Below are positions 7,922 to 53,768 of a stretch of 64,000 nt of DNA, piece by piece. Under the pieces are notes generated by a model. The model worked only from the letters and a program-made list of their open reading frames with translations, did not search any database and was not told where the DNA came from. Where the stretch lies: positions 3,220,640-3,284,639 of the forward strand of contig OZ253554.1 in the NCBI GenBank assembly GCA_965262675.1, given 5' to 3'. The position numbers and the translations under genes were made by a program. How positions within the stretch are numbered: position 1 is the stretch's first letter; each line of letters opens with the position of its first letter. The DNA is from Terriglobia bacterium. GTDB taxonomy: Bacteria; Acidobacteriota; Terriglobia; 20CM-2-55-15.

Positions 7922-10018
7922 TTGGCACCCTTAACCAAGCAACAATCAGTCGGTACCCGGGCAATGAAGTTTGTGGACGCCGCTGTCTGCTATTCGGCGG
8001 GAAAGACCCTTGACACGATTCAATACGTGGCGAAGTATGACGTGAAGGCCTCATTCACTCCGAAATGGGCCGAAAAACCCCTCCAGAAGTCATGGCAGAA
8101 GACCAAACCTGCTCTGGGGTGGCCACGGCAAACCGACTCGCTCTGTCCGAAGTGCGTACTGGAAGCCCGCGAAGCGATCATCAACGGCACGCAGGACTGG
8201 ACAACGCTGCTCCACGAAAAAGTCGGCGAAGTGAAAGCCGACATTATCGAGCGCGACGGGCAGGTGTGGATGGTCAAGGATTGCCCGCTCCACGGTAAGG
8301 TCGAAGACATGATGGCGGTGGATGTCCGCTTCCTGGAATGGATCGAAAAGAATTTCCCGGGACGGGACATGCCGTCGCACAACGACGAAGACCTCCACAA
8401 TCATGGCTCGAGCACGATCAAGCATGGGCGGGGCTCGGTGCTGACCGTCGATCTCACGAACCGCTGCAACATGATGTGCGATCCGTGTTTCATGGACGCC
8501 AATCAAGTCGGTTACGTGCATGAACTGACATGGGACGACGTCAAGGAAATCATGGACAACGCGATGGAAATCAAGCCGCGTCGTCAGATGTCGATCCAGT
8601 TCTCCGGCGGCGAACCGACGATGTCTCCGTTTTTCCTGGATGCCGTCAGTTACGCCCGGAAGTTGGGTTTTTCAAGTACGCAAGCCGCGAGCAACGGTAT
8701 CGAGTTCGCCAAGAGCAAGGAGTTCTGCCGCCAAGCGGCGGAAGCCGGTCTGCGGTTCGTCTACCTGCAGTTCGACGGCGTCGGAAACGATGCCAACAGC
8801 CACCGCCAGGTGGGCAACCTGTTCGATGTGAAACTTCGGGCAATCAACAACCTGCACGAAGCTGGCGTGGAGATCATCCTGGTGGTGACGCTGGTCAACG
8901 GCGTCAACAACGATCAGGTGGGTTCCATTCTGCGTTTCGCGATGGACAACCCCAAGAAGATCGCGTTCATCGCGTTCCAACCCGTCTCGTTCACGGGGCG
9001 TGACGAAGAGGTGACCCCCGAACGGCGTTTGCGGCAACGGTATACGCTGTCGCATCTGGCGCATGACGTGAAACAGCAGGTCGGTATCACCGAACCCACA
9101 CGCGACTGGTTTCCCCTGTCCCTGATGGGCTCCTTTGCCGACTTTGCCGACCTCGCTCATGGCCCGGGCCGCGAATGGGGGCAGGTCAGTTGCGGTTGCC
9201 ACCCGAACTGCGGTGTCGGTACGGCGCTGATGATCAACAAGGAAACCAAGGAGATGGCACCCGTCCCGCAGTTCCTGAATATCCCGGGACTGGTCTCCGA
9301 CATGCAGAAAATCACGGACATGGGCCGTGGCAAATGGATGTCCAACGGTCTGATGGGACTGGCGCTGCTGAAGCACTACAACCCCCACAAGGCGCCCGGC
9401 GGCCTCACATTGTCCGCCCTGTTCAAGAAGTTCGACAAATCGTTCGGTCTGACCGGAAGAAACTATGGTTCCATCGATGGAAATTCCCGTTTGGATGACG
9501 TCGAGAAACGTCGTTCAGACCCCTGGAACTTCCTTTTCGTTGCGGGCATGTGGTTCCAGGATCTGTTCAACTATGACTTCCGCCGCACCGAGATGTGCAT
9601 CATTCCGTACGCGACACAGTTGGGAGAGATCTCCTTCTGTGCGTACAACACCGGAATCGGCTGGCGGAACATCATCGAAAACATGTTCAAGACCCACACG
9701 GTCGCCGAATGGTATCGGGAGCATGGAAAGCACGGCGTCTATGCGGGCGGCAAGAACGTTGAACTTGAAACCACCGAACACAGCCTCAAGATTCGCGCCG
9801 AGGATGCAAACCGGGTCCGCGACCGCGGCGAACTTCCCATGACGGCTGCCGATGAAGAAAAGCAACGCCGGCAGGCCGAGCGTGAAGCGCAAAAAGCCCG
9901 GGAGATCTACGAAGAGATGGTGATGGGCAAACGCCCGAGCAAGATGGATCTGATCAAGATCGAAGTCCTGAACCGCAGGGAAGAAGATAAAGAAGAGGCC
10001 CTTTCCGCCAGCAAGTAG
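7922..10018 (+). CDS. Radical SAM protein with N-terminal rubredoxin-like Cys motif; possibly Tes/GDGT-MAS-like membrane-spanning lipid synthase family
   Basis: CX3CX2C radical SAM motif (CNMMCDPC), SAM-binding GGEPT (QFSGGEPT), N-terminal CPKC...CPLHG motif, C-terminal CGCHPNC motif. TTG start with an AAGGAGG Shine-Dalgarno 5 nt upstream. The family call rests on architecture only. Confidence 0.75.
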   Translation: MAPLTKQQSVGTRAMKFVDAAVCYSAGKTLDTIQYVAKYDVKASFTPKWAEKPLQKSWQKTKPALGWPRQTDSLCPKCVLEAREAIINGTQDWTTLLHEKVGEVKADIIERDGQVWMVKDCPLHGKVEDMMAVDVRFLEWIEKNFPGRDMPSHNDEDLHNHGSSTIKHGRGSVLTVDLTNRCNMMCDPCFMDANQVGYVHELTWDDVKEIMDNAMEIKPRRQMSIQFSGGEPTMSPFFLDAVSYARKLGFSSTQAASNGIEFAKSKEFCRQAAEAGLRFVYLQFDGVGNDANSHRQVGNLFDVKLRAINNLHEAGVEIILVVTLVNGVNNDQVGSILRFAMDNPKKIAFIAFQPVSFTGRDEEVTPERRLRQRYTLSHLAHDVKQQVGITEPTRDWFPLSLMGSFADFADLAHGPGREWGQVSCGCHPNCGVGTALMINKETKEMAPVPQFLNIPGLVSDMQKITDMGRGKWMSNGLMGLALLKHYNPHKAPGGLTLSALFKKFDKSFGLTGRNYGSIDGNSRLDDVEKRRSDPWNFLFVAGMWFQDLFNYDFRRTEMCIIPYATQLGEISFCAYNTGIGWRNIIENMFKTHTVAEWYREHGKHGVYAGGKNVELETTEHSLKIRAEDANRVRDRGELPMTAADEEKQRRQAEREAQKAREIYEEMVMGKRPSKMDLIKIEVLNRREEDKEEALSASK

Positions 10019-43858: not shown

Positions 43859-44146
43859 ATGACCGGTATCGAACCGATTCATCCTGGAGAACATTTGGCC
43901 GATTTTCTCGAAGAACTCGGAATCAGCCAATACCGTTTGGCGAAAGCGATCGGCACGCCGCCGCGGCGCATCAACGAGATCGTCCACGGACGCTGATCGA
44001 TCATGGCGGACACGGCGCTACGGTTGGGGCGGGCTTTCGAATTGACACCGGAGTTCTGGCTGAACTTGCAAAACTTGTACGACCTCGATCTTGCCCGCGC
44101 CTCGATCGATACCGGGACCATCGAAGCGCTGCGTACGGCCCAATAG
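43859..44146 (+). pseudogene. higA: higA-family (XRE HTH) antitoxin gene interrupted by an in-frame TGA at 43994-43996; no higB partner
   Basis: Translation [45 protein letters not shown]-stop-SIMADTALRLGRAFELTPEFWLNLQNLYDLDLARASIDTGTIEALRTAQ is colinear with HigA. The stop sits where a conserved Arg/Lys is expected, so a CGA>TGA change is likely. Confidence 0.6.
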
Positions 44147-44382
44147 CCGGGCGGGTCCATTCCGCGGCGGACGATCCGGAAGTTGAAGTCCACGAACGAA
44201 AAAGCACGGGGCCAATGAATAGGAAGTTCGACTTTGTGAGGCGGTTCCGGTGATCGAGGAGTCTGTCGGGAATTGGCTCCCTCGAACTAAGAATCAACAA
44301 CTTACGAGCCATCCTTGGTCTGTAAGTTGTTGATTCTTGGTTGCAGACTTCTTATTCCCGACAGGCTCCGAGATGGCTGCCT

Positions 44383-45672
44383 TTACACAAACGCTCCGAA
44401 TACTCCACCATCGCTTGTAGCAACGCCGAGCAACTTCGCGCGAACCCGGTGAGCTGTGTCTAACGAGATCGGTCCGCCGTGCACTGCTCGGTTCCGGTAG
44501 GGTTTCACTACTTCTATTGCCTTCCGCAACCTATGAAGGTCAATCCCACGCGTGTCGCAAAACTCCTGCAGTTCCGTACGCGGCGATTCCAACGCCAGCG
44601 CAATCTCACCCAGGTTGAGTCGATCCTTCTGACGCCCCCCGATTAGAATCCTCGGGCGGCGACTACCATTTTTGAGCAGTTCGGAATCAGGAAAATTCCG
44701 GAGTCCGCGCCTTCTGAGAAATTCGCAGAGATCATCCAGAATCCCCGTCTTGAGTTGAGTTTCGAAGGCAAAACCGAATCCGGCTATACCGAGGCCAGGA
44801 TCAGGGCAATCGGGATCCTGCAGGGTTCGCTCAGCGGCAAGGGCCTTTGTCTGGGCATCCTCAGACAGGACGTCCCACACCTGACAGGTGAGCTCTGTCT
44901 TGAGCGAATCTTCAACTGCGCGCATTTCAGGCGGATTGCATTTCATCTGATCCACGACAAGCTCGATGCAACGCTCAAGACGCTCGTATTGGTCAATAAG
45001 GGGAATCTGTGAAGCGCTTATCGAATCTAACCTGTCCATCACCTGCTGAAAACGTACGGCATAGGGGTCGTCACGGGGCGCCGTGGCCGAGGCCTCCACC
45101 GACGCCGCGCACCATGCCAAATACAGGATATGCCGCCAATCGAGTTCGCTGATATCGGAGGGATTCCCAGATGATCCTCGGACGAAGTTATCCATCAGGA
45201 TCTGCTGCCAATCGCTACGTTCGGTTTTGACTTCAATGGAAACAACGCCTTCGAGATCGTTCAGGTCTCGATCTGTTGCTGTTGGCAACGTCAATGGCAA
45301 CTTTGGCATCCAATGACCATTCCGTGTCGTGACATCACCGTGTACTCCAATGACGTTCCTGGCGGTCAGGAGACAGAGAAACTCGTCGTCCTTCAATCTC
45401 TGCACGAACATCGCGACCGGACTGCGATCTTCTGACAAACGCCACACGCACCAGGGATGGCGAAGAGACTCCTCGTTGTCGTCCTCGCTTCGAAACCGCG
45501 GGAGGTGAGTCTCTTCGTAACGGCGTATGGCACCGCCGGCGGGCATGTACATCTGGGCGGCTCGAATCCCGAGGAGCCGGAACCACTCATCGACTTGCCT
45601 TCCTTCTGAATTCAATGGATCTTTCCACTTATAGTCGGTGATGCCATTTGCTTGCGCCTCGCTTGGCAGCAC
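44383..45672 (-). CDS. Hypothetical protein with C-terminal HEPN-like Rx4HG motif (candidate RNase effector)
   Basis: 429 aa. Near the C-terminus, LRKAIEVVKPYRNRAVHGG contains R-N-x3-H, which is the HEPN catalytic signature. Sits immediately downstream of the Cys-rich gene and near zorD. Confidence 0.5.
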   Translation of the reverse strand: MLPSEAQANGITDYKWKDPLNSEGRQVDEWFRLLGIRAAQMYMPAGGAIRRYEETHLPRFRSEDDNEESLRHPWCVWRLSEDRSPVAMFVQRLKDDEFLCLLTARNVIGVHGDVTTRNGHWMPKLPLTLPTATDRDLNDLEGVVSIEVKTERSDWQQILMDNFVRGSSGNPSDISELDWRHILYLAWCAASVEASATAPRDDPYAVRFQQVMDRLDSISASQIPLIDQYERLERCIELVVDQMKCNPPEMRAVEDSLKTELTCQVWDVLSEDAQTKALAAERTLQDPDCPDPGLGIAGFGFAFETQLKTGILDDLCEFLRRRGLRNFPDSELLKNGSRRPRILIGGRQKDRLNLGEIALALESPRTELQEFCDTRGIDLHRLRKAIEVVKPYRNRAVHGGPISLDTAHRVRAKLLGVATSDGGVFGAFV

Positions 45673-45705
45673 AGGATACCCGGCCGCTTTCCATTCCAGG
45701 GAAAG

Positions 45706-46428
45706 CTATTCCGTCGCTCGGTCTTGGTCACAGTTCATGCAGGAAACGCATCGGGCCAGAAGTTCCGAGATGGTCTTCAGATTTGTATGATCGAATTTGT
45801 CTAAAGCCTGCTTCAGGGCCAGACGTTCCGTATCGCAGTGGGCACAATCCGCCAAGTGTTGGCGATAATATCCCAGTGGCCAACCGTCGAAATTGTCAAG
45901 GCAACCGCGAGTCAGAAGCGTTTCTTGTTGCCCCAGCTTTTCGCAAACGTCCGTGCCTTCTATTAACTCCTCTCCCCAGGCGATGTCATCATCGGGAAAC
46001 AGGATCGTCCCCCACGTTCCGACGAAATCGAGATCGAAATCCGGCAATTCATCCGGCGTCTGCATCGCGAGGGGAACGGCTGTATCCGAGTAGGGCATGT
46101 CGGAAAGACGCCGCGCAGCTTCCGCCCGTAGTTCTTCCGAAAACAGTGTTTTCCACTCTTCGTTCAAGACTATGGCCTCGATCGTCAGGTCGGGCCGGCC
46201 GCGAGCGCAGATATCGACGGAATCGTCGGACGGTGGCTCCGAAAGCAGTTGCTTGGCGGCGCGCGCCCCGCCCAACTCGCGCACGCGCTCGATGTACTGG
46301 TTGGGAGCGTACTTACAGTCCGCAATAACATGCCGAATGAAATTCATGATTCGATCATTGAAGTTGTTCTCGACAAGTTCGCGTTCGGTCCATCTCAGCA
46401 GCATCTCAGTCTCCATCGCGCGTGACAT
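45706..46428 (-). CDS. Hypothetical Cys-rich protein (CAHCDTERL / CVSCMNC pairs), likely co-transcribed with the HEPN-like gene
   Basis: 240 aa with several CxxC pairs near the C-terminus. 33-nt gap to the downstream gene, 204-nt gap after zorD. Confidence 0.45.
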   Translation of the reverse strand: MSRAMETEMLLRWTERELVENNFNDRIMNFIRHVIADCKYAPNQYIERVRELGGARAAKQLLSEPPSDDSVDICARGRPDLTIEAIVLNEEWKTLFSEELRAEAARRLSDMPYSDTAVPLAMQTPDELPDFDLDFVGTWGTILFPDDDIAWGEELIEGTDVCEKLGQQETLLTRGCLDNFDGWPLGYYRQHLADCAHCDTERLALKQALDKFDHTNLKTISELLARCVSCMNCDQDRATE

Positions 46429-46632
46429 TCATCACGGCTCCATAGCAGTCGTCTTCCGATTTCCGTGCTTCGAGCACGAGCATCTCGTGAGTCTATTCCT
46501 TCGTCGAATTACTTCGCTCTCTACCGCATCGTATCTGTGCGTCCGCGGACCGACGCGAGAGCTTCATCAATGACCGCCGCGCCATGCGTGGTGTCCGACC
46601 GCACGTGCTTGCGCAGAACAACGCCAGAGAGC

Positions 46633-49581
46633 TCAATCCTCAAAGGCCGACCGTTCCATCACATCGACCCGAACCTCCGGCGCATCAGGCACTTTGCCGC
46701 CACGCGCCTCGGTCATCGTGCTGCGGTAGAGATCTTGCACATCACGCTCGGTGGCGGTGGTCGGCGCAAGCACGCGGCGGTTCATCGCCCGTTTCCGTTC
46801 CATCAGGCTGTCGAGCTTCAAATCGAAGCTGTATTCGCCGAAACGCGGGTGCCGTGCCAACGGCAGGTAGACGTGCACGGTCCGGCGTTGTCCGATACGG
46901 AAGACGCGATCGGTGCACTGATCCTCCACGGCCGGATTCCACCACCGCGAAAGATGAATGACGTGGTTCGCCGCCGTCAGCGTCAGACCGACGCCGCCGG
47001 CACGAGGCGACAGGAGCATAACGTCAAAACCCATACGGTCCTGGAACATGTCGACGCGCGCCTTGCGCCTTCCACCGGAGACCGCGCCGTTGATGACGAG
47101 CACATCCTCGCGAAGCCGAAAGCGGTGTCTGAGCGCGCCGATCAGGAAGTCCTGCATTTTGAGCGACTCGACGAAGATCAACACTTTCTCGCCTTGGTCG
47201 GCGACCCCCTCCAGAATCGCGAATGTCTCGGATAACCGCGCCGATTCCCGTATGTACTGATCGACGCTGCGATCGCCCGGCACCGCGGGATGCAGGGAGG
47301 TATTTCGAAGTTTCTGGAGCGTCTGAAGCACACCGCCATCCTGTCGGCCGCGCAGCACGATCTCCGCGTACGCCTCGGCCTGGAACGGCGGCATCTCAAC
47401 CACGCGCCGGTGCACCCGCTTCTCCGGCAGCGTCGCGAGATGGTCTTCCTTGAGCCGGCGCAACATCAGCGCAGGACCCGTCGACTCCGCCGGCTTCGTC
47501 AGCGTGCGATGCAAATCCTCGAGTATCGCGTGGCCTTCCGCGTCTCGTCTTTCGTATCTCCCGCTGAAATCCTTCAGGGTTCCGAACATCCCGGGTTCGG
47601 TCCGGTCCAGCAACGACCAGATATCCGCCGGGCGATTCTCCACGGGCGTGCCGGTCATCAGCAGGGCAAAGTCGACGTTCATGGCAAGCGCCGCGTCCGT
47701 CAGGCGAGCGTTCGGGTTTTTGATTTTCTGGGCTTCGTCAAACACACCGGCGCGCCAGTGGATACGTCCGAAACTGTGCTGATAGTCGCGAAGAGTTTCG
47801 TAGGTGGTCAGCACCCAGTGGGCATCCTTCAGTAGAGCAATGTCCAGGAGCGGTTGTCCGAAAGCGAGATCGTCGCCACGATCCGCCGCGTGTTTCTTTC
47901 GGAGACGCCGCAATTCGCCGCCATGCGCTTCAACGGCCCGGCCGAGTCCTTCTCCGGCGAGATGTTTCGCATGTTCGTCCTTCCAGTTCTTGAGCAATCC
48001 GGTCGGAGCGACAACGAGCGTGGGCTGTTGCGGCAACCCCTCGTTTACGGAATGCGTCTTCAGGCAGGAAAGAAAAGCCAATGCTTCGAGCGTCTTGCCG
48101 AGTCCCATGTCGTCGGCAAGCAGGGCACCCCAACTGCCGGCTTCCCATCTGGTTTCGAGCCAGGCAAGACCCTCCTGTTGGTGGGGAAGAAGTTCGGTCC
48201 GCAAGCCGGGCTTGGACGTCGAAATGCCGGGCCGGCGCCGCTTCCGCTCACGGGTGAACCGAACGGTTTCCAGGTTGTCGATAACGATCAAGATCTGATC
48301 GTCATCGTCGCGTCCGACGGGTGCTTTGTCCGGTTCGGTGCTCGTCCTCGGACGCTGGGCTGACTGATGCCTGCGGATCAGTGCCTCGACGGCGCTGATT
48401 GTGGCCGAATTCGCCGGGATATCGGCGCCGCTATCGGTCCGCACGGTCGGTTCGCCACGCTCGACCGCGCTCTGGATTCGTTCGAGCAGGCCGGACAGGT
48501 CGTCGGGAGACAGCGGCACCATCTGCGAACCGATGCGAAGTCCCGATTCGTCTGGAGGCAACCACGGTTCCGCGGCGTGCCGGATCCACGGAACCGTCTT
48601 GTCGACCCAGATGCCGACGCCGCTGACACGGTCGCTCAATCCGTCATCGCTGAAGACGCTGTCGAGTTCAAACTCGTGCGTGTCGAATGCGCCGCGCAGG
48701 TAGCCCGAAGCGTTCCGCAGGAAATCTCGACGCTCATCGGGCGTGCCCGACTGTGCGCGTTGCACGATGGCGAGAGCCTGTTGGACCTCCGGCGTAAGCA
48801 CGACAAAGGCCCCGCCCCCGGCCGGGTATCGATGCCTGACGCCGGACAGGGCGCGGAAGCGCCGTGCGAAATCCTGCTGGCGGGCCTCTGGCAGCGTGCG
48901 GTCGAACGCTTGCTCGTGATCACCCACATCGGTCGCGCGAGTCGCCCGCCTGCCGACGACCGGGTCGAAGTCCGGTTCGCCGTCCTCGTTCACAAACGGA
49001 TCCAGCTCGAAGCTCGAAGCTACGACGATCTTCAGCGAACGCAGATTGTCGTCACCGACAACGGCGTCGGCCGGCAACATCTCGGCGATCCGTCCCCATC
49101 GAAGCATTCGCGATTCCAGATCCGCCTCGTCCGCCCGGTTGAACAGGTCGATGGCATCGGCGATGGAGTACAGAGGATCGAGCAGCACGAAGTCGCCGCC
49201 GCCCGCATGCAGCCATGCCCCCTCACGTCGCGTGCCGAGGACGCGCCGTCCGTTGCGGAGAAAGCCGTAACGGATCTGGAAGTCGGCGTCGTGTATGGCG
49301 TTGTTCGCGACGACCTCGATCGCGAACGGCGATGCATCGGGAAGCCCGATGTACCGCAGTTCGCCGGGGGTCAATCCGGCGACGCTCGGCCAGGAAACCG
49401 ACAATGAACAACCATCGTCCTTCTCGACGGCGCCGCCGTCATCCCGAAGTCGAATCAGCGCGCCCACGCCGGCCGATCCGTCGGCGATCGATGTCCACTC
49501 GCGGACGGAAACCGGTGGATCGCCCTGCATCCGGACGATCAAGCCGTCCGGCGTCGGCTTGAACCTGAGGCTGTTAGTCAT
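46633..49581 (-). CDS. zorD: SNF2-family helicase with large N-terminal domain (ZorD-like)
   Basis: SNF2_N motifs (LLADDMGLGKT, DEAQKIKN) and helicase-C motifs (RAGGVGLTLTAANHVIHLSRWWNPAVEDQCTDRVFRIGQ). Preceded by ~470 aa of unknown function. Last gene of the zorABCD-like operon. Confidence 0.75.
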   Translation of the reverse strand: MTNSLRFKPTPDGLIVRMQGDPPVSVREWTSIADGSAGVGALIRLRDDGGAVEKDDGCSLSVSWPSVAGLTPGELRYIGLPDASPFAIEVVANNAIHDADFQIRYGFLRNGRRVLGTRREGAWLHAGGGDFVLLDPLYSIADAIDLFNRADEADLESRMLRWGRIAEMLPADAVVGDDNLRSLKIVVASSFELDPFVNEDGEPDFDPVVGRRATRATDVGDHEQAFDRTLPEARQQDFARRFRALSGVRHRYPAGGGAFVVLTPEVQQALAIVQRAQSGTPDERRDFLRNASGYLRGAFDTHEFELDSVFSDDGLSDRVSGVGIWVDKTVPWIRHAAEPWLPPDESGLRIGSQMVPLSPDDLSGLLERIQSAVERGEPTVRTDSGADIPANSATISAVEALIRRHQSAQRPRTSTEPDKAPVGRDDDDQILIVIDNLETVRFTRERKRRRPGISTSKPGLRTELLPHQQEGLAWLETRWEAGSWGALLADDMGLGKTLEALAFLSCLKTHSVNEGLPQQPTLVVAPTGLLKNWKDEHAKHLAGEGLGRAVEAHGGELRRLRKKHAADRGDDLAFGQPLLDIALLKDAHWVLTTYETLRDYQHSFGRIHWRAGVFDEAQKIKNPNARLTDAALAMNVDFALLMTGTPVENRPADIWSLLDRTEPGMFGTLKDFSGRYERRDAEGHAILEDLHRTLTKPAESTGPALMLRRLKEDHLATLPEKRVHRRVVEMPPFQAEAYAEIVLRGRQDGGVLQTLQKLRNTSLHPAVPGDRSVDQYIRESARLSETFAILEGVADQGEKVLIFVESLKMQDFLIGALRHRFRLREDVLVINGAVSGGRRKARVDMFQDRMGFDVMLLSPRAGGVGLTLTAANHVIHLSRWWNPAVEDQCTDRVFRIGQRRTVHVYLPLARHPRFGEYSFDLKLDSLMERKRAMNRRVLAPTTATERDVQDLYRSTMTEARGGKVPDAPEVRVDVMERSAFED

Positions 49582-49651: not shown

Positions 49652-51157
49652 TCATCGAAACGTTGAGCGCCATGAGCGGCTGCGTTCCGATCGGCGCAGC
49701 GTGGGTGGGAAGTACCGATCGCGTTCGATTCTGACACCGGTGTTGTCTCGCAACCATTTCGCGATCTTGTCCTGCCACCGGCCGTATTCGCTGCCCATGT
49801 GCGCTTGCAAATGTGCTCCGGCGATCCGATGGTATTGGCGCGTATGTCTCAGTTCGTTGGCGAAGTAGGTATTCTTGTACAACCCGGGTGTTCCAGAAGT
49901 CCCGTCGAGCCACATGTGGCACGAGCCGTTGTGGCTCCATTCGGCTATGGTCACTCCAGGCATGCGAAAGAGCAGGACGGACTGGTCACTCTGGCCGCCG
50001 CGCAACGCGCTTGTCGTTCCGAGCCCCCCGTCGTTCTTGTTCATCTTGCGGAGCACATCCGCCGCGCGACGACCCAGCACGAACCAGATGTCCTCGATCA
50101 GTTCCCTGGCGAGAAACGCCCGCCAGAAGGCTTCCCGGTAACGCCAATGTCTGTCGAGTGCGGTCTCCTTGACGAGAAGGAAGAACTGCTCCAGCACACG
50201 TTCGACGAGCCATCGGATCACGACGCGCGTGACGTCGTCTGGCACGCCGGACCATTTGTGTTTCCCGGACCGCAGGCGGGGGTCGCCGAAGTGACGCAGA
50301 AAGAACGATTGCAGCCGTTCCTTGACTTCGGGCTTCGGAGACTGGTCAACGAAAGGACCGAGCAACTCAACCGCGGTCCTTACCCGCACGGCCGGTTCGT
50401 CGAAGCGCAATTTGCCGTCGCACTCCAAAAGGGACAGCAACCGCTCGAGGCGGGCATCGCCGAAGCGATTGTTCGTCAGCCGGGCTCGTACGTCCGGGAG
50501 ATACGAGCGAACGCCCGATTCGAGAAACCCGCAACGCGCGAGTCCGGCATCGATCCCGGCTTGGCGCAGGATTTCTTCGGGAGCCGCGTCCGCGGCCGTC
50601 ATCAACTGGTTCACGAACGACCGGCCACCGTTATTCTTCAGAAACCCATAATCCTTGCAGCGCTGACGCCACCGTTTCAGTGACGGCGGAGGTGCTGACG
50701 AAGGACCTTGGATGGTGTTTTCGAGCAACCGGCGTAGATCGTCGAACGTCGGCAGGTCGACCGGATAGACGCGCAAGAACTCGTGCAGCAGCGCCAGTGT
50801 GGACCGCGTGCGGCCGCCCTCCGACAGCCAGCGCCCGTATTCCTGTACGAAGCGGGGGCGCGCGCCCAACCACCGGGCACGGCCCGCGTCCGGCGGTGAG
50901 TAGAACAAAACCCATGGCAATCGCCGGAGGTCGCCGGTTGAGAGGCGGTCGAGAGAATGGTAACGGCGCCACGATTCATTGGCTCGCCGATGCAACGTCT
51001 CCAAGTCGTAGGGCTCGGGCGCTTTGGGCTGAACGTCGCCCAACCGCTTCGCTATACCGGCCGCCGCAGCCCGCGTCCGGCGGGGTTCGAAAGCGCGGTC
51101 AATTTTCGGGAAGCCGACCCAGCGATCGAGCGAATCCCTCAGCGAAGGCGTGTTCAC
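49652..51157 (-). CDS. zorC: ZorC-like protein (EH-signature-type domain)
   Basis: 501 aa, positioned between the MotB-like and SNF2 genes. C-terminal segment IAEWSHNGSCHMWLDG carries conserved E/H as in the ZorC EH-signature domain. Assignment is by context plus motif. Confidence 0.55.
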   Translation of the reverse strand: MNTPSLRDSLDRWVGFPKIDRAFEPRRTRAAAAGIAKRLGDVQPKAPEPYDLETLHRRANESWRRYHSLDRLSTGDLRRLPWVLFYSPPDAGRARWLGARPRFVQEYGRWLSEGGRTRSTLALLHEFLRVYPVDLPTFDDLRRLLENTIQGPSSAPPPSLKRWRQRCKDYGFLKNNGGRSFVNQLMTAADAAPEEILRQAGIDAGLARCGFLESGVRSYLPDVRARLTNNRFGDARLERLLSLLECDGKLRFDEPAVRVRTAVELLGPFVDQSPKPEVKERLQSFFLRHFGDPRLRSGKHKWSGVPDDVTRVVIRWLVERVLEQFFLLVKETALDRHWRYREAFWRAFLARELIEDIWFVLGRRAADVLRKMNKNDGGLGTTSALRGGQSDQSVLLFRMPGVTIAEWSHNGSCHMWLDGTSGTPGLYKNTYFANELRHTRQYHRIAGAHLQAHMGSEYGRWQDKIAKWLRDNTGVRIERDRYFPPTLRRSERSRSWRSTFR

Positions 51158-52065
51158 CGCGCCCCTTCGCCGACCCGTTCACGAACATCGGTCTGGACAT
51201 CGGGTTCGCCCGTCGTCAGCACGCCCTCGGGAGGTTCAAGAAGGAACCGCAGATCAATGCGACGGTGGATGCGTCCGGCGTCGTCGGCCGCGGCACCGAG
51301 TGGCGCCGACTGGAATTCGCCGCCGGGTACCGGCCGCGTGGCGCCGTAACCGCTGGTGCTCAGAATGGGATAGTTCTCTGTGTTCAGCAGGCGCGCCACG
51401 CCCGGTTCGCAAGCGGCGATCATGCCATGCACAGTCGCCGCCCGCATCGAGGACAGTTCGAGATTGTCTCTGAAGCGGTTGCCGGCCGCGACGGGCACAT
51501 CGTCGGTGTGGCCCTCAATCAGCAGGGTCTCGAGGAGCCACGGAAACCGCTGTTCCCCGCATTCATACGCGGATGGATCTGCGGGAAGTTGACAATAGGA
51601 CAGCGCGACGGCGTCTTCGCTCGCCAGTGCGTTCCCGTCCGTCGCCGGAAGCCCGATCAGTTCGCCCGAGACGTAGCATGGTACGACCTCGGCGATGGCC
51701 TCGGCGAGACGTCCGACGTTGACGTGATGTTCAGGGACCGGAGTATCGCTGCCCGACGGGAAGTTGATGGCGTTGTCGGAAAGGCGCAGGACGCCCTGTT
51801 CGTACAGCACTTCGACCCGGATACCGGAATCCTGGAGCAGGCCGGCGATGTCCCCGAGGATCCGGTCGCGCGTTTCATCCGCGGCGGTGAGTTCCTCGGT
51901 GACGTTGGCCTGTTCCTCGGTGATGTTGGCGAGTTGATACGCAAAGACGGCCAGCATGATGATGAAGACGAAGATGAGCGACGAGACGAGGTCGCTCACA
52001 CTGGCAAGATAACTCTGCCCGCCCTGGCCGGCGTCCGGCGAGGGTCTGGATCCGCCGACCATCAC
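51154..52065 (-). CDS. zorB: MotB/OmpA-like protein (ZorB-like): N-terminal TM anchor plus C-terminal OmpA-type peptidoglycan-binding domain
   Basis: TM helix LVSSLIFVFIIMLAVFAY. OmpA-like motifs LIEGHTDDVP, NLELSSMRAATVHGMI and LSTSGYGATRPV. Confidence 0.7.
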   Translation of the reverse strand: MMVGGSRPSPDAGQGGQSYLASVSDLVSSLIFVFIIMLAVFAYQLANITEEQANVTEELTAADETRDRILGDIAGLLQDSGIRVEVLYEQGVLRLSDNAINFPSGSDTPVPEHHVNVGRLAEAIAEVVPCYVSGELIGLPATDGNALASEDAVALSYCQLPADPSAYECGEQRFPWLLETLLIEGHTDDVPVAAGNRFRDNLELSSMRAATVHGMIAACEPGVARLLNTENYPILSTSGYGATRPVPGGEFQSAPLGAAADDAGRIHRRIDLRFLLEPPEGVLTTGEPDVQTDVRERVGEGAR

Positions 52066-53768
52066 GCACGCCTCCGGAGATGCTCGCTCAGATCCTCGAT
52101 CGACGAATGGAGTTCGTTCGTTGCGCCGGCCAGATCCTGTGTGATCTTCGACGTAGTCCCGTCCAGTTCGTTGACAAATTGCGTCACCTGTTTGCAGTAT
52201 CCCGACAGACCTTCGTCGAGCTTCTGGAACACTTGGGCCAGCGAGCCATCGATGCCCTCGAAGCGTTCCCGATACCGGTCCCAGTTGCCGGCCACCGTTT
52301 TCTGGTGCTGTTCGAGCGTATTGACCGCGGCGTCGATACGGCCGACGAGTTCGCTCGTCCGCCCCAGCGCTGCGGCCGCCTTGTCGCTGGAGGCACGGAT
52401 CTCGCTTGCCGCGCGGCCCATAGGTTCAGCGACATCCGCGATCTGACGGTGGGCGACTTCAATCGTCTCGCGCAACGTGTTGATCCGATCAACGAAACTT
52501 GTCATGCTGGCCAGCACCTGCTCGCTCTGTCGTGTGGACCGGTCGAGACTGTGCGCGGCGGCCAGCAGGCCGTCGAGCGATCCGGAGATCTGCGAGGCGG
52601 CCTCGACGCCGGCCGCGGCGGCGGCCGTCCCGGCGCCTGTCAGCCGTTCCGCCAGTTGATGCGAAGCATCCGCCATGATGCGGGTGACATCGCCGAGCGA
52701 TTGTTGCAACGTCTCGGTCATCGCGGTCGCGCCTGCGTCCATCGATGTCCTGACCGTAGTCATGACCGAACTGAGCGCCGCTTGGACGTCCCGTTGCGAC
52801 TGGGCCAGCCCGTCGGATGAGTCCTTCAGGGTGCGGTTCAACTCGGTGACAATAGCGGCCATCTCGTCGAACTGCGATCCGGCGCGTTCCTGCATGGCCG
52901 AGGTAAACCGCTCGAGCGTCTCCTCGATCATCCTTCCGGAGTCGGTCGACCGATCGACGCGAAGTCCCTCGACGGCTTCGACGAGCCGTTCGAGTTGCGG
53001 CGACAATCGGCCGGCGATCTTCTCCTCGAGTGCCTGTTCGAGAGAGAAAATCAATTCACTGTTGAAGCGTTCGAGCTGCATTGTCGCGCGTGTCGCCTGT
53101 TCGAGTTGCTTCAGGGCGACGCCTTCCGGCGTGACGCGCTGCAGGCGGGTCTCGATCGATCCGACCCACTCGTCCAATGCGATGTGGAGTCGCCGGGAAG
53201 CGAAGCGTTCCCCAAGTACGAACAATATGGAACAGACAATTCCGACGATCGATGTCCAGAAAGCCAGCGACGCACCGCCCAGAAGCTGCTGCAGGGAGGC
53301 TGTTATCTCCGCCGGATTGCTGGAGGACAGACCCGAGCTTGCCGATCCGACCCCGCCTGCCAAACCCAAGAACGTACCCAGGATGCCGGCGCCTGTCAGC
53401 AGGTTCGGCACGGCTTGGTAAAAACCGAAAGGGATTTTGGGGAAAATGACGGTAGTGTCGTTCAGATATTGCGACACCACTCCGGTGTTCCGGATCGGGT
53501 CGCCGGAATCCGGTTCAGGAAGAACCAGCGTTTCGACGAATTCCTTCCACGGCAGACCGAAGGCCTTTTCGACGCGCATGTTGTATTCGTCGAATGCGCC
53601 GACAAAGCCTTTTTCTCCGTCAACGCGCTCAAGTTGTTCGCGCACCCCGCGAAGCCTTCGATATAGCGGGCGCGCGCCCAAAGCCAGCATTATCGCGCAG
53701 ACAACAGCTGACAGAGCAATGATCCCGCAGTACCACCATACGAAGCTTTCGGTGAGGAAGAAGCTCAT
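52062..53768 (-). CDS. zorA: MotA/TolQ/ExbB-like proton-channel protein with long coiled-coil tail (ZorA-like)
   Basis: N-terminal TM segments with MotA-like TGAGILGTFLGLAGG and LAFWTSIVGIVCSILFVLG. Followed by ~370 aa of Ala/Gln/Glu/Leu-rich heptad-like sequence. Overlaps the zorB start. Confidence 0.7.
   Translation of the reverse strand: MSFFLTESFVWWYCGIIALSAVVCAIMLALGARPLYRRLRGVREQLERVDGEKGFVGAFDEYNMRVEKAFGLPWKEFVETLVLPEPDSGDPIRNTGVVSQYLNDTTVIFPKIPFGFYQAVPNLLTGAGILGTFLGLAGGVGSASSGLSSSNPAEITASLQQLLGGASLAFWTSIVGIVCSILFVLGERFASRRLHIALDEWVGSIETRLQRVTPEGVALKQLEQATRATMQLERFNSELIFSLEQALEEKIAGRLSPQLERLVEAVEGLRVDRSTDSGRMIEETLERFTSAMQERAGSQFDEMAAIVTELNRTLKDSSDGLAQSQRDVQAALSSVMTTVRTSMDAGATAMTETLQQSLGDVTRIMADASHQLAERLTGAGTAAAAAGVEAASQISGSLDGLLAAAHSLDRSTRQSEQVLASMTSFVDRINTLRETIEVAHRQIADVAEPMGRAASEIRASSDKAAAALGRTSELVGRIDAAVNTLEQHQKTVAGNWDRYRERFEGIDGSLAQVFQKLDEGLSGYCKQVTQFVNELDGTTSKITQDLAGATNELHSSIEDLSEHLRRRA

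Follow-up and report, generated by a model that had tools for sequence, protein, structure and literature searches.

The HEPN endoribonucleases RnlA (RNase LS) and LsoA are the toxins of the rnlAB and lsoAB anti-T4 systems, and the HEPN domain that we describe here appears to be of their structural type. Catalytic HEPN domains carry an Rx4-6H motif with a polar residue (N, D or H) after the arginine, together with a second motif, Ex3[KR], and some HEPN domains are non-catalytic (PMC3710099). In the genome of a Terriglobia bacterium (assembly GCA_965262675.1, contig OZ253554.1) we analysed a stretch of 64,000 nucleotides, hereafter the window, in which two open reading frames (ORFs), the larger with an Rx4-6H motif, lie downstream of a type I Zorya operon on the same strand. 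A sequence-only reading had taken these ORFs for a two-gene module, a Cys-rich protein plus a HEPN-motif protein, appended to the Zorya operon as an undescribed defence pair. Both ORFs are present, but alignment across their junction shows them to be, by ancestry, one gene of about 680 codons rather than a pair, and their homologues run through the junction as single polypeptides. At a probability of roughly 0.72, we read the locus as a HEPN-family gene of about 680 codons that has been cut by an amber codon and that sits on a segment foreign to Zorya. The parts of the gene are as follows.

Positions 45706-46428, minus strand: upstream ORF, 240 amino acids (aa), ATG start.
Positions 44383-45672, minus strand: downstream ORF, 429 aa, GTG start.
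Positions 44383-46428, minus strand: ancestral gene of 681 codons (240 + TAG + 11 + 429), a continuous frame with a single internal stop.
Positions 45706-45708, minus strand: in-frame TAG that splits the gene, placed by the junction alignment.
Positions 45673-45705, minus strand: supposed 33-nt spacer, 11 codons (LSLEWKAAGYP) of coding sequence conserved in homologues.

The two ORFs share one reading frame with a lone TAG between them, and translation across the gap gives …CDQDRATE*LSLEWKAAGYPVLPSEAQANGITDYKWKDP…, the asterisk marking the stop. In the homologues the place of this TAG is taken by the first Leu of a conserved LL.AEW(KAAG) stretch, and a single step leads from TTG to TAG. The 11 codons that follow it match the LL.AEWKAAG stretch of the homologues, and because they are conserved there, the 33-nt gap that had passed for an intergenic spacer is coding sequence. 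All five homologues in the junction alignment (P0002, P0006, P0007, P0008 and P0016) read through this point, as does the metagenomic locus L014. In the closest database relative, P0002 (659 aa), and likewise in P0006 (639 aa), a single protein of 42-47% identity spans both ORFs. Further full-length, single-polypeptide homologues include P0021 (650 aa), P0036 (634 aa), P0025 and P0054-56. Among the top matches of the representative search described below, at least 15 proteins of 600-700 aa have the HEPN C terminus, most of them together with the N-terminal part.

These observations bear on whether the ORFs could be a genuine toxin-antitoxin (TA)-like pair, in which a 240-aa Cys-rich regulator or antitoxin and a 429-aa HEPN toxin begun at the GTG codon are separately expressed. 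In the deposited annotation the ORFs do stand as separate proteins, namely P0003 with 240 aa and P0001 with 389 aa, the GTG lies 33 nt past the stop, and fusion in other genomes is the look to be expected of a Rosetta-stone relationship. A natural short form without the N-terminal half also exists (P0020, locus L023), though no gene for that half lies upstream of it. Yet the shared frame, the single stop at a conserved Leu and the conserved coding sequence of the spacer all speak for one gene, the fused form prevails among diverse relatives, and two cleanly separated genes were seen at none of the homologue loci examined. We consider separate genes quite improbable. Co-occurrence of the two parts, on which the idea of a pair had been staked, is real, but it arises because the parts belong to one gene. 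An apparent protein of the second half alone (P0067, L022) is an artefact, cut by the end of its contig.

Two other accounts of the split were considered and rejected. Genuine gene fission was suggested by L006, where the second half of P0004 lies in another frame. P0007, which is identical to L006 over their overlap on both sides of the junction and reads through, exposes a deletion with a frameshift in L006 instead. Reassignment or suppression of the stop codon fails as well, since TAG ends ordinary genes in the window, terminating the malonyl-CoA decarboxylase gene and 16 of 54 long ORFs, and the window contains no suppressor tRNA.

The gene belongs to a sizeable, previously undescribed multidomain HEPN family without a curated model. 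An exhaustive profile search over 1.84 billion representatives returned 1,527 proteins at E<=1e-3, of which 274 remain at E<=1e-10 and 26 at E<=1e-30. Many of the cluster representatives in the sets of 1,527 and 274 share the N-terminal domain alone, however. It was this search that revealed the family; a word-indexed homologue search gave just two to three relatives per query, even with a 21-sequence profile. With the family as query, a scan of the genome_contigs collection, which does not contain the window's own genome, found no relatives, and one of the metagenome_contigs collection found a single locus, L014. In the plasmid and phage collections nothing matched the HEPN half, and matches to the N-terminal domain were annotated only as "hypothetical" or DUF3883.

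Curated models give the same picture, as the sequence-only reading had anticipated in finding no recognisable family. Neither ORF has a Pfam, PADLOC or PHROGs match, and no part of the family is covered by a model in Pfam, NCBIfam, PADLOC or PHROG. PADLOC v2 matched neither the ORFs nor 10 family members, save for one chance-level match to IetA. The larger ORF has a weak match to HP0729_fam alone in NCBIfam (E 5e-4, residues 368-419), and recurrent weak HP0729_fam matches across the family land on the C-terminal HEPN region.

That region is where the catalytic signature lies, and its features, numbered by the 429-aa ORF, are these.

Positions 44386-44922, minus strand: C-terminal HEPN domain as predicted, residues ~251-429, its modelled fold closest to RnlA/LsoA.
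Positions 44479-44496, minus strand: Rx4-6H motif R393-N-R-A-V-H398 (RNRAVH), with a polar residue after the Arg.
Positions 44749-44763, minus strand: Ex3[KR] motif E304-T-Q-L-K308, the second HEPN motif.

The strings on which attention had first fallen (LRKAIEVVKPYRNRAVHGG, CAHCDTERL and CVSCMNC) are all found in the ORF translations, and the R-N-x3-H signature noticed there holds up well. In 52 family sequences, R393, H398, E304 and R411 are each at least 90% conserved, alignment A6 has K or R at position 308, and R[NDGA]xxxH is present in nearly all long members of the family. Conservation of R393 and H398 at this level means that the RNRAVH motif is no chance match. The AlphaFold2 model of the 429-aa part, built on family alignments, has a mean predicted local distance difference test score (pLDDT) of 86.0, rising to about 96 over the C-terminal 180 residues, which are predicted to form an all-alpha, up-and-down helical bundle that matches solved HEPN domains. 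In the fold comparison RnlA and LsoA are followed by AF0298 (8.2), 2jpu (8.0), TT1696 (7.7) and the sacsin HEPN domain (7.3), while Csx1, ST0689, Csm6, the HepT toxins and AbiF score 5.4-6.6. On the model, the C-terminal domain is very probably a HEPN domain. A paralogue, P0016, has the same N-terminal two-thirds and a DUF4145-type HEPN domain at the C-terminal position (E 7e-4). This apparent displacement of one domain by another is consistent with a HEPN effector slot at the end of the protein.

The remainder of the protein consists of three parts.

Positions 46099-46428, minus strand: N-terminal all-helical domain of ~110 aa (residues 1-110 of the 240-aa ORF), with no Pfam name.
Positions 45835-45945, minus strand: Cys/His motif C162-x28-H191-x3-C195-x2-C198, a probable zinc site.
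Positions 44923-45672, minus strand: central domain (429-aa ORF, residues 1-250), in which a conserved LP(S/T)DGDL strand is accompanied by a long helical segment.

The AlphaFold2 model of the 240-aa part has a pLDDT of 84.6, with a disordered linker between the N-terminal domain and the helical region of the Cys/His motif. The N-terminal domain is common as a stand-alone protein of ~100 aa, and elsewhere it is fused, in terminal position, to GmrSD_N, HNH, HEPN_Swt1, NucS_C, GIY-YIG, SLFN-AlbA_2 and HepT domains. No Pfam, NCBIfam or PADLOC model describes it, and it has no significant fold match in the PDB. We regard it as a candidate sensor or regulatory module shared by defence nucleases. 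Among the matches of the representative search there is a ~95-aa helical domain with the pattern …GG.e.Ak.LL….SdGf..L…gRlDLtvEalvL.p.w..LFt.eEl..Ar.RL…, with instances in P0087, P0098, P0138, P0084, P0139, P0148, P0092 and P0072. It lacks a model in Pfam, NCBIfam and PADLOC, and it is found alone, in tandem (P0029 and P0089) and fused to GmrSD_N, HNH, Swt1-HEPN, NucS_C and GIY-YIG, again as a candidate module for sensing or regulation in defence nucleases. In the central domain, alignment A6 shows no variation at D136, W155 and A190, and the AlphaFold2 secondary structure fits the layout given above.

The Cys/His cluster deserves separate comment. The cluster from whose CxxC pairs a zinc finger had been proposed is conserved as a C-x28-H-x3-C-x2-C motif, which is probably a zinc site. 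Of the 30 listed proteins with a length of 550 aa or more, 22 have the H-x3-C-x2-C core, and the Cys upstream of it is conserved. The ZAS anti-sigma proteins have the motif C-x(25-29)-H-x3-C-x2-C, and RsrA, ChrR and RslA share its spacing, likewise in a helical region, with the protein here. We rejected ZAS membership (zf-HC2) all the same, for the motif is present but neither the zf-HC2 model or fold nor a partner ECF sigma factor was found.

Could the C-terminal domain then be a non-catalytic helical or HEPN-like domain, and the protein a regulator such as a zinc- or redox-responsive anti-sigma-like or RNA-binding factor? The likeness of H-x3-C-x2-C with its upstream Cys to the ZAS pattern favours this, as do a weak RseA match on P0036, a weak PagR/ArsR-like similarity at residues 328-399 and the lack of significance of the Foldseek matches, and non-catalytic HEPN domains do exist. 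Both catalytic HEPN motifs are strongly conserved, though, as is typical of active HEPN RNases, and no sigma factor gene is adjacent; one that lies ~5 kb away in L007 is uninformative. The chance that the protein is such a regulator seems to us slim.

Whether the gene has anything to do with Zorya can be judged from the surrounding DNA, which is laid out as follows.

Positions 52062-53768, minus strand: zorA of the type I Zorya operon.
Positions 51154-52065, minus strand: zorB.
Positions 49652-51157, minus strand: zorC.
Positions 46633-49581, minus strand: zorD, truncated (PADLOC E-value 8e-292).
Positions 44181-46633: window-specific segment, 2453 bp, 55% GC, delimited by the break in blastn synteny with L015.

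The type I Zorya operon lies upstream of both ORFs on their strand, and the gap from zorD to the 240-aa ORF is 204 nt, the figure of 33 nt being that between the two ORFs. A scan with ZorD led to L015, a Terriglobia (Acidobacteriota) metagenome-assembled genome (MAG) whose ZorD is 92% identical. Its DNA is syntenic with the window at ~92-94% identity across Zorya and the downstream housekeeping genes, and it lacks the HEPN gene. Synteny stops at window position 46634 and restarts at ~44180. The 2,453-bp segment in between, at 55% GC against 63% for Zorya, contains the split gene, the 204 nt that precede it and a very stable hairpin after the stop codon. In its place L015 has 391 bp that encode an Mrr_cat nuclease domain (E 6e-18). 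The domain is found in L016 with the same E-value (6e-18), and in L016-L018, outgroups from Latescibacterota and Gemmatimonadota that lack the HEPN gene, it is fused in frame to ZorD. This fusion indicates that a ZorD with Mrr_cat is the ancestral state. The window's ZorD stops eight codons into the Mrr-like domain (…MERSAFED*; zorD 3' end, 46633-46660). The event that brought in the HEPN gene thus replaced the end of zorD and left it truncated, and the gene is no conserved component of Zorya. In L015 the region concerned (8900-9312) has an in-frame TAG (8908-8910) between the helicase and Mrr_cat parts of zorD.

Homologue loci agree with this history. Zorya genes are absent from three of them with several kilobases of flank (L001, L007/L008 and L023) and from four with shorter flanks (L012/L013, L009, L010 and L022), whereas the sequence-only reading had raised the prospect that the pair travels with Zorya. 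The neighbours of these homologues are MNT/HepT pairs (L007/L008 and L012/L013), DUF433/PIN-like genes, HicA/CopG, HSDR_N and Tn3-family fragments. The pairs of MNT (NTP_transf_2) and HepT adjoin P0036 (L007 10142-10745) and P0015 (L012 934-1556), once downstream and once upstream; their adjacency may reflect a functional link or simply chance inside TA islets.

It might still be argued that, having displaced the Mrr-like domain of ZorD, the HEPN gene now serves Zorya as an accessory or replacement effector. It stands 204 nt downstream of zorD on the same strand, a crude scan of that gap found no sigma-70-like promoter, and the insertion took out precisely Mrr_cat. The gene is absent, however, from the 94%-identical relative, which has the same Zorya operon and flanks, and from three more distant ZorD loci; no family member examined adjoins Zorya, the GC content of the segment is unlike that of Zorya, and the gene itself carries a premature stop. 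Nor is a replacement obviously needed, because the nuclease activity of E. coli ZorD maps to its Snf2-type C-terminal domain (PMC11946911). A role in Zorya is, in our judgement, extremely improbable, and the claim that the ORFs are appended to the operon as an accessory has to be given up. Only slightly less far-fetched is a more elaborate scenario, in which a single-polypeptide anti-phage system (a sensor N-domain, a zinc or redox C-H-C-C switch and an RnlA-like HEPN RNase) was turned by the amber codon into a working two-piece regulator and toxin that functionally replaced the ZorD Mrr-like domain. Were it true, it would be a natural effector swap in Zorya.

We return to the amber codon, and to the reading that it cut a HEPN-family gene on a foreign segment. 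Just beyond that segment lies the degraded antitoxin gene that had been noticed earlier.

Positions 43859-44146, plus strand: higA remnant, with an in-frame TGA at 43997-43999.

In the higA remnant a CGA at a conserved Arg codon has become TGA, and a stretch of ~305 bp that holds higB is deleted by comparison with L015, which has both HigB (Pfam E 1e-13) and HigA in intact form (9349-9994). Relatives of the HEPN gene are broken too: L006 by its deletion and frameshift, L014 by an N-terminal truncation, and P0005 as a 146-aa fragment. P0005 (L002-L005) is an N-terminal fragment, 53% identical to the 240-aa ORF, that several Terriglobia contigs carry beside a DUF433/PIN-like TA pair. Apart from the TAG, both halves of the window's gene are intact, which implies either a recent mutation or a wrong base call in a long-read MAG. 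The deposited copy is probably a recently inactivated gene, or pseudogene, in a decaying defence islet.

The other possibility is that the gene is intact, the TAG an artefact of sequencing or assembly, and the full 680-aa HEPN protein made. In favour of an error, neither half has a frameshift, both are well conserved (42-47% identity to P0002) apart from the one codon, and the two further in-frame stops, in the window's higA and in the L015 zorD, lie directly 5' of GATC. Such a position is one at which errors of base calling related to methylation could arise. But the context of the TAG (GAATAGCTT) contains no GATC, the structural decay around the gene (higB deleted, ~305 bp, and the zorD nuclease domain replaced) cannot stem from wrong base calls, and close relatives of the gene have been broken independently. 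An artefact is therefore unlikely, if less so than the alternatives discussed above. Three in-frame stops are found in all in defence or TA genes of these two related long-read MAGs (45706-45708 and 43997-43999 in the window, 8908-8910 in L015). With two of the three (the higA TGA and the L015 zorD TAG) directly 5' of GATC, they could reflect real decay or methylation-linked base-calling error.

Several points weigh against a HEPN-family gene cut by an amber codon. The TAG could, as just discussed, be a miscalled base, and the gene would then be intact. With a GTG 33 nt past the TAG, re-initiation could still yield the 429-aa fragment, in an unregulated or inactive form. As for the domain itself, Foldseek against the PDB gave no significant match (best E 1.6, with RnlA and HepT among the insignificant ones), single-sequence and profile searches of PDB sequences found nothing, and no HEPN Pfam model matches the family even at E<=10, where a HEPN, Abi_2 or Swt1-like match had been expected at the C terminus of the 429-aa protein.

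One further element accompanies the gene.

Positions 44253-44374: long imperfect hairpin with 53-nt arms and a perfect core of 17 bp, located just past the stop codon and within the inserted segment.

As RNA, this hairpin of ~120 nt is predicted to fold at -60.4 kcal/mol (z -7.6), and it has no T-tract. It has no second copy in the window and is absent 3' of the homologues. An attC-like or repeated-element reading is unsupported, as the hairpin is unique in the window and absent from homologues, and its outer ends lack R''/R'. Candidate roles are a terminator, an RNA stabiliser or a recombination scar.

What might the intact protein have done? By analogy with characterised HEPN proteins, we infer RNase activity, autoinhibition, a trigger and a role in defence. 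The intact protein would most likely be a metal-independent endoribonuclease, in which HEPN-mediated dimerisation builds a composite R/H active site that cuts RNA without metal, on the pattern of RnlA/LsoA and other HEPN proteins of defence. Until a cue of infection or stress arrives, the HEPN domain would be kept inactive by the parts that precede it, namely the N-terminal domain, Cys/His module and central domain. Once the trigger is sensed, cleavage of cellular RNA, phage RNA or both would lead to growth arrest or abortive infection. The gene would then be a single-protein abortive-infection or toxin-type defence gene, a role that fits the position of the family among TA genes. In the gene as deposited, translation would end after residue 240.

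Our analysis removes a false lead, in that the locus holds no new two-gene accessory of Zorya. What it records is the turnover of a defence islet, where an insertion truncated zorD and brought in a nuclease gene that gained a stop, while higBA decayed. It also flags an uncharacterised HEPN family, and both this family and its shared N-terminal domain merit definition.

How, then, does the gene compare with known systems? Type I Zorya (ZorABCD) adjoins it on the same strand, but the gene is no conserved Zorya component, its arrival having truncated zorD. HepT of the HepT/MNT systems is a protein of ~130 aa with an RX4HXY motif and a nucleotidyltransferase antitoxin, in contrast to a multidomain protein of 680 aa with no MNT partner in the window. 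The modelled C-terminal domain is closest to RnlA and LsoA, yet these share no sequence similarity with the protein, which matches no RnlA model in Pfam or NCBIfam and is not a member of that family. RnlA begins with the TBP-like NTD and NRD domains, whereas here a helical domain, the Cys/His motif and the central domain precede the HEPN domain, and the N-terminal model matched nothing RnlA-like. No small ORF that could plausibly encode an antitoxin like rnlB or lsoB follows directly on the 3' side of the gene, where the hairpin and then the convergent higA remnant lie. The single-protein HEPN families of abortive infection and defence remain to be compared. None of their Pfam or PADLOC models matches the family described here, and to our knowledge its Cys/His motif and central LPSDGDL domain are absent from AbiD/AbiF, AbiJ, AbiU2, AbiV, ApeA and the Swt1-like and DUF4145 families. 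In architecture and setting they nonetheless resemble it: the Abi_2 proteins AbiD/AbiF, together with AbiJ, AbiU2, AbiV, ApeA and the Swt1-like and DUF4145 fusions, each place a HEPN effector at the C terminus of a protein encoded by a solo gene among TA and defence genes, as the gene here does.

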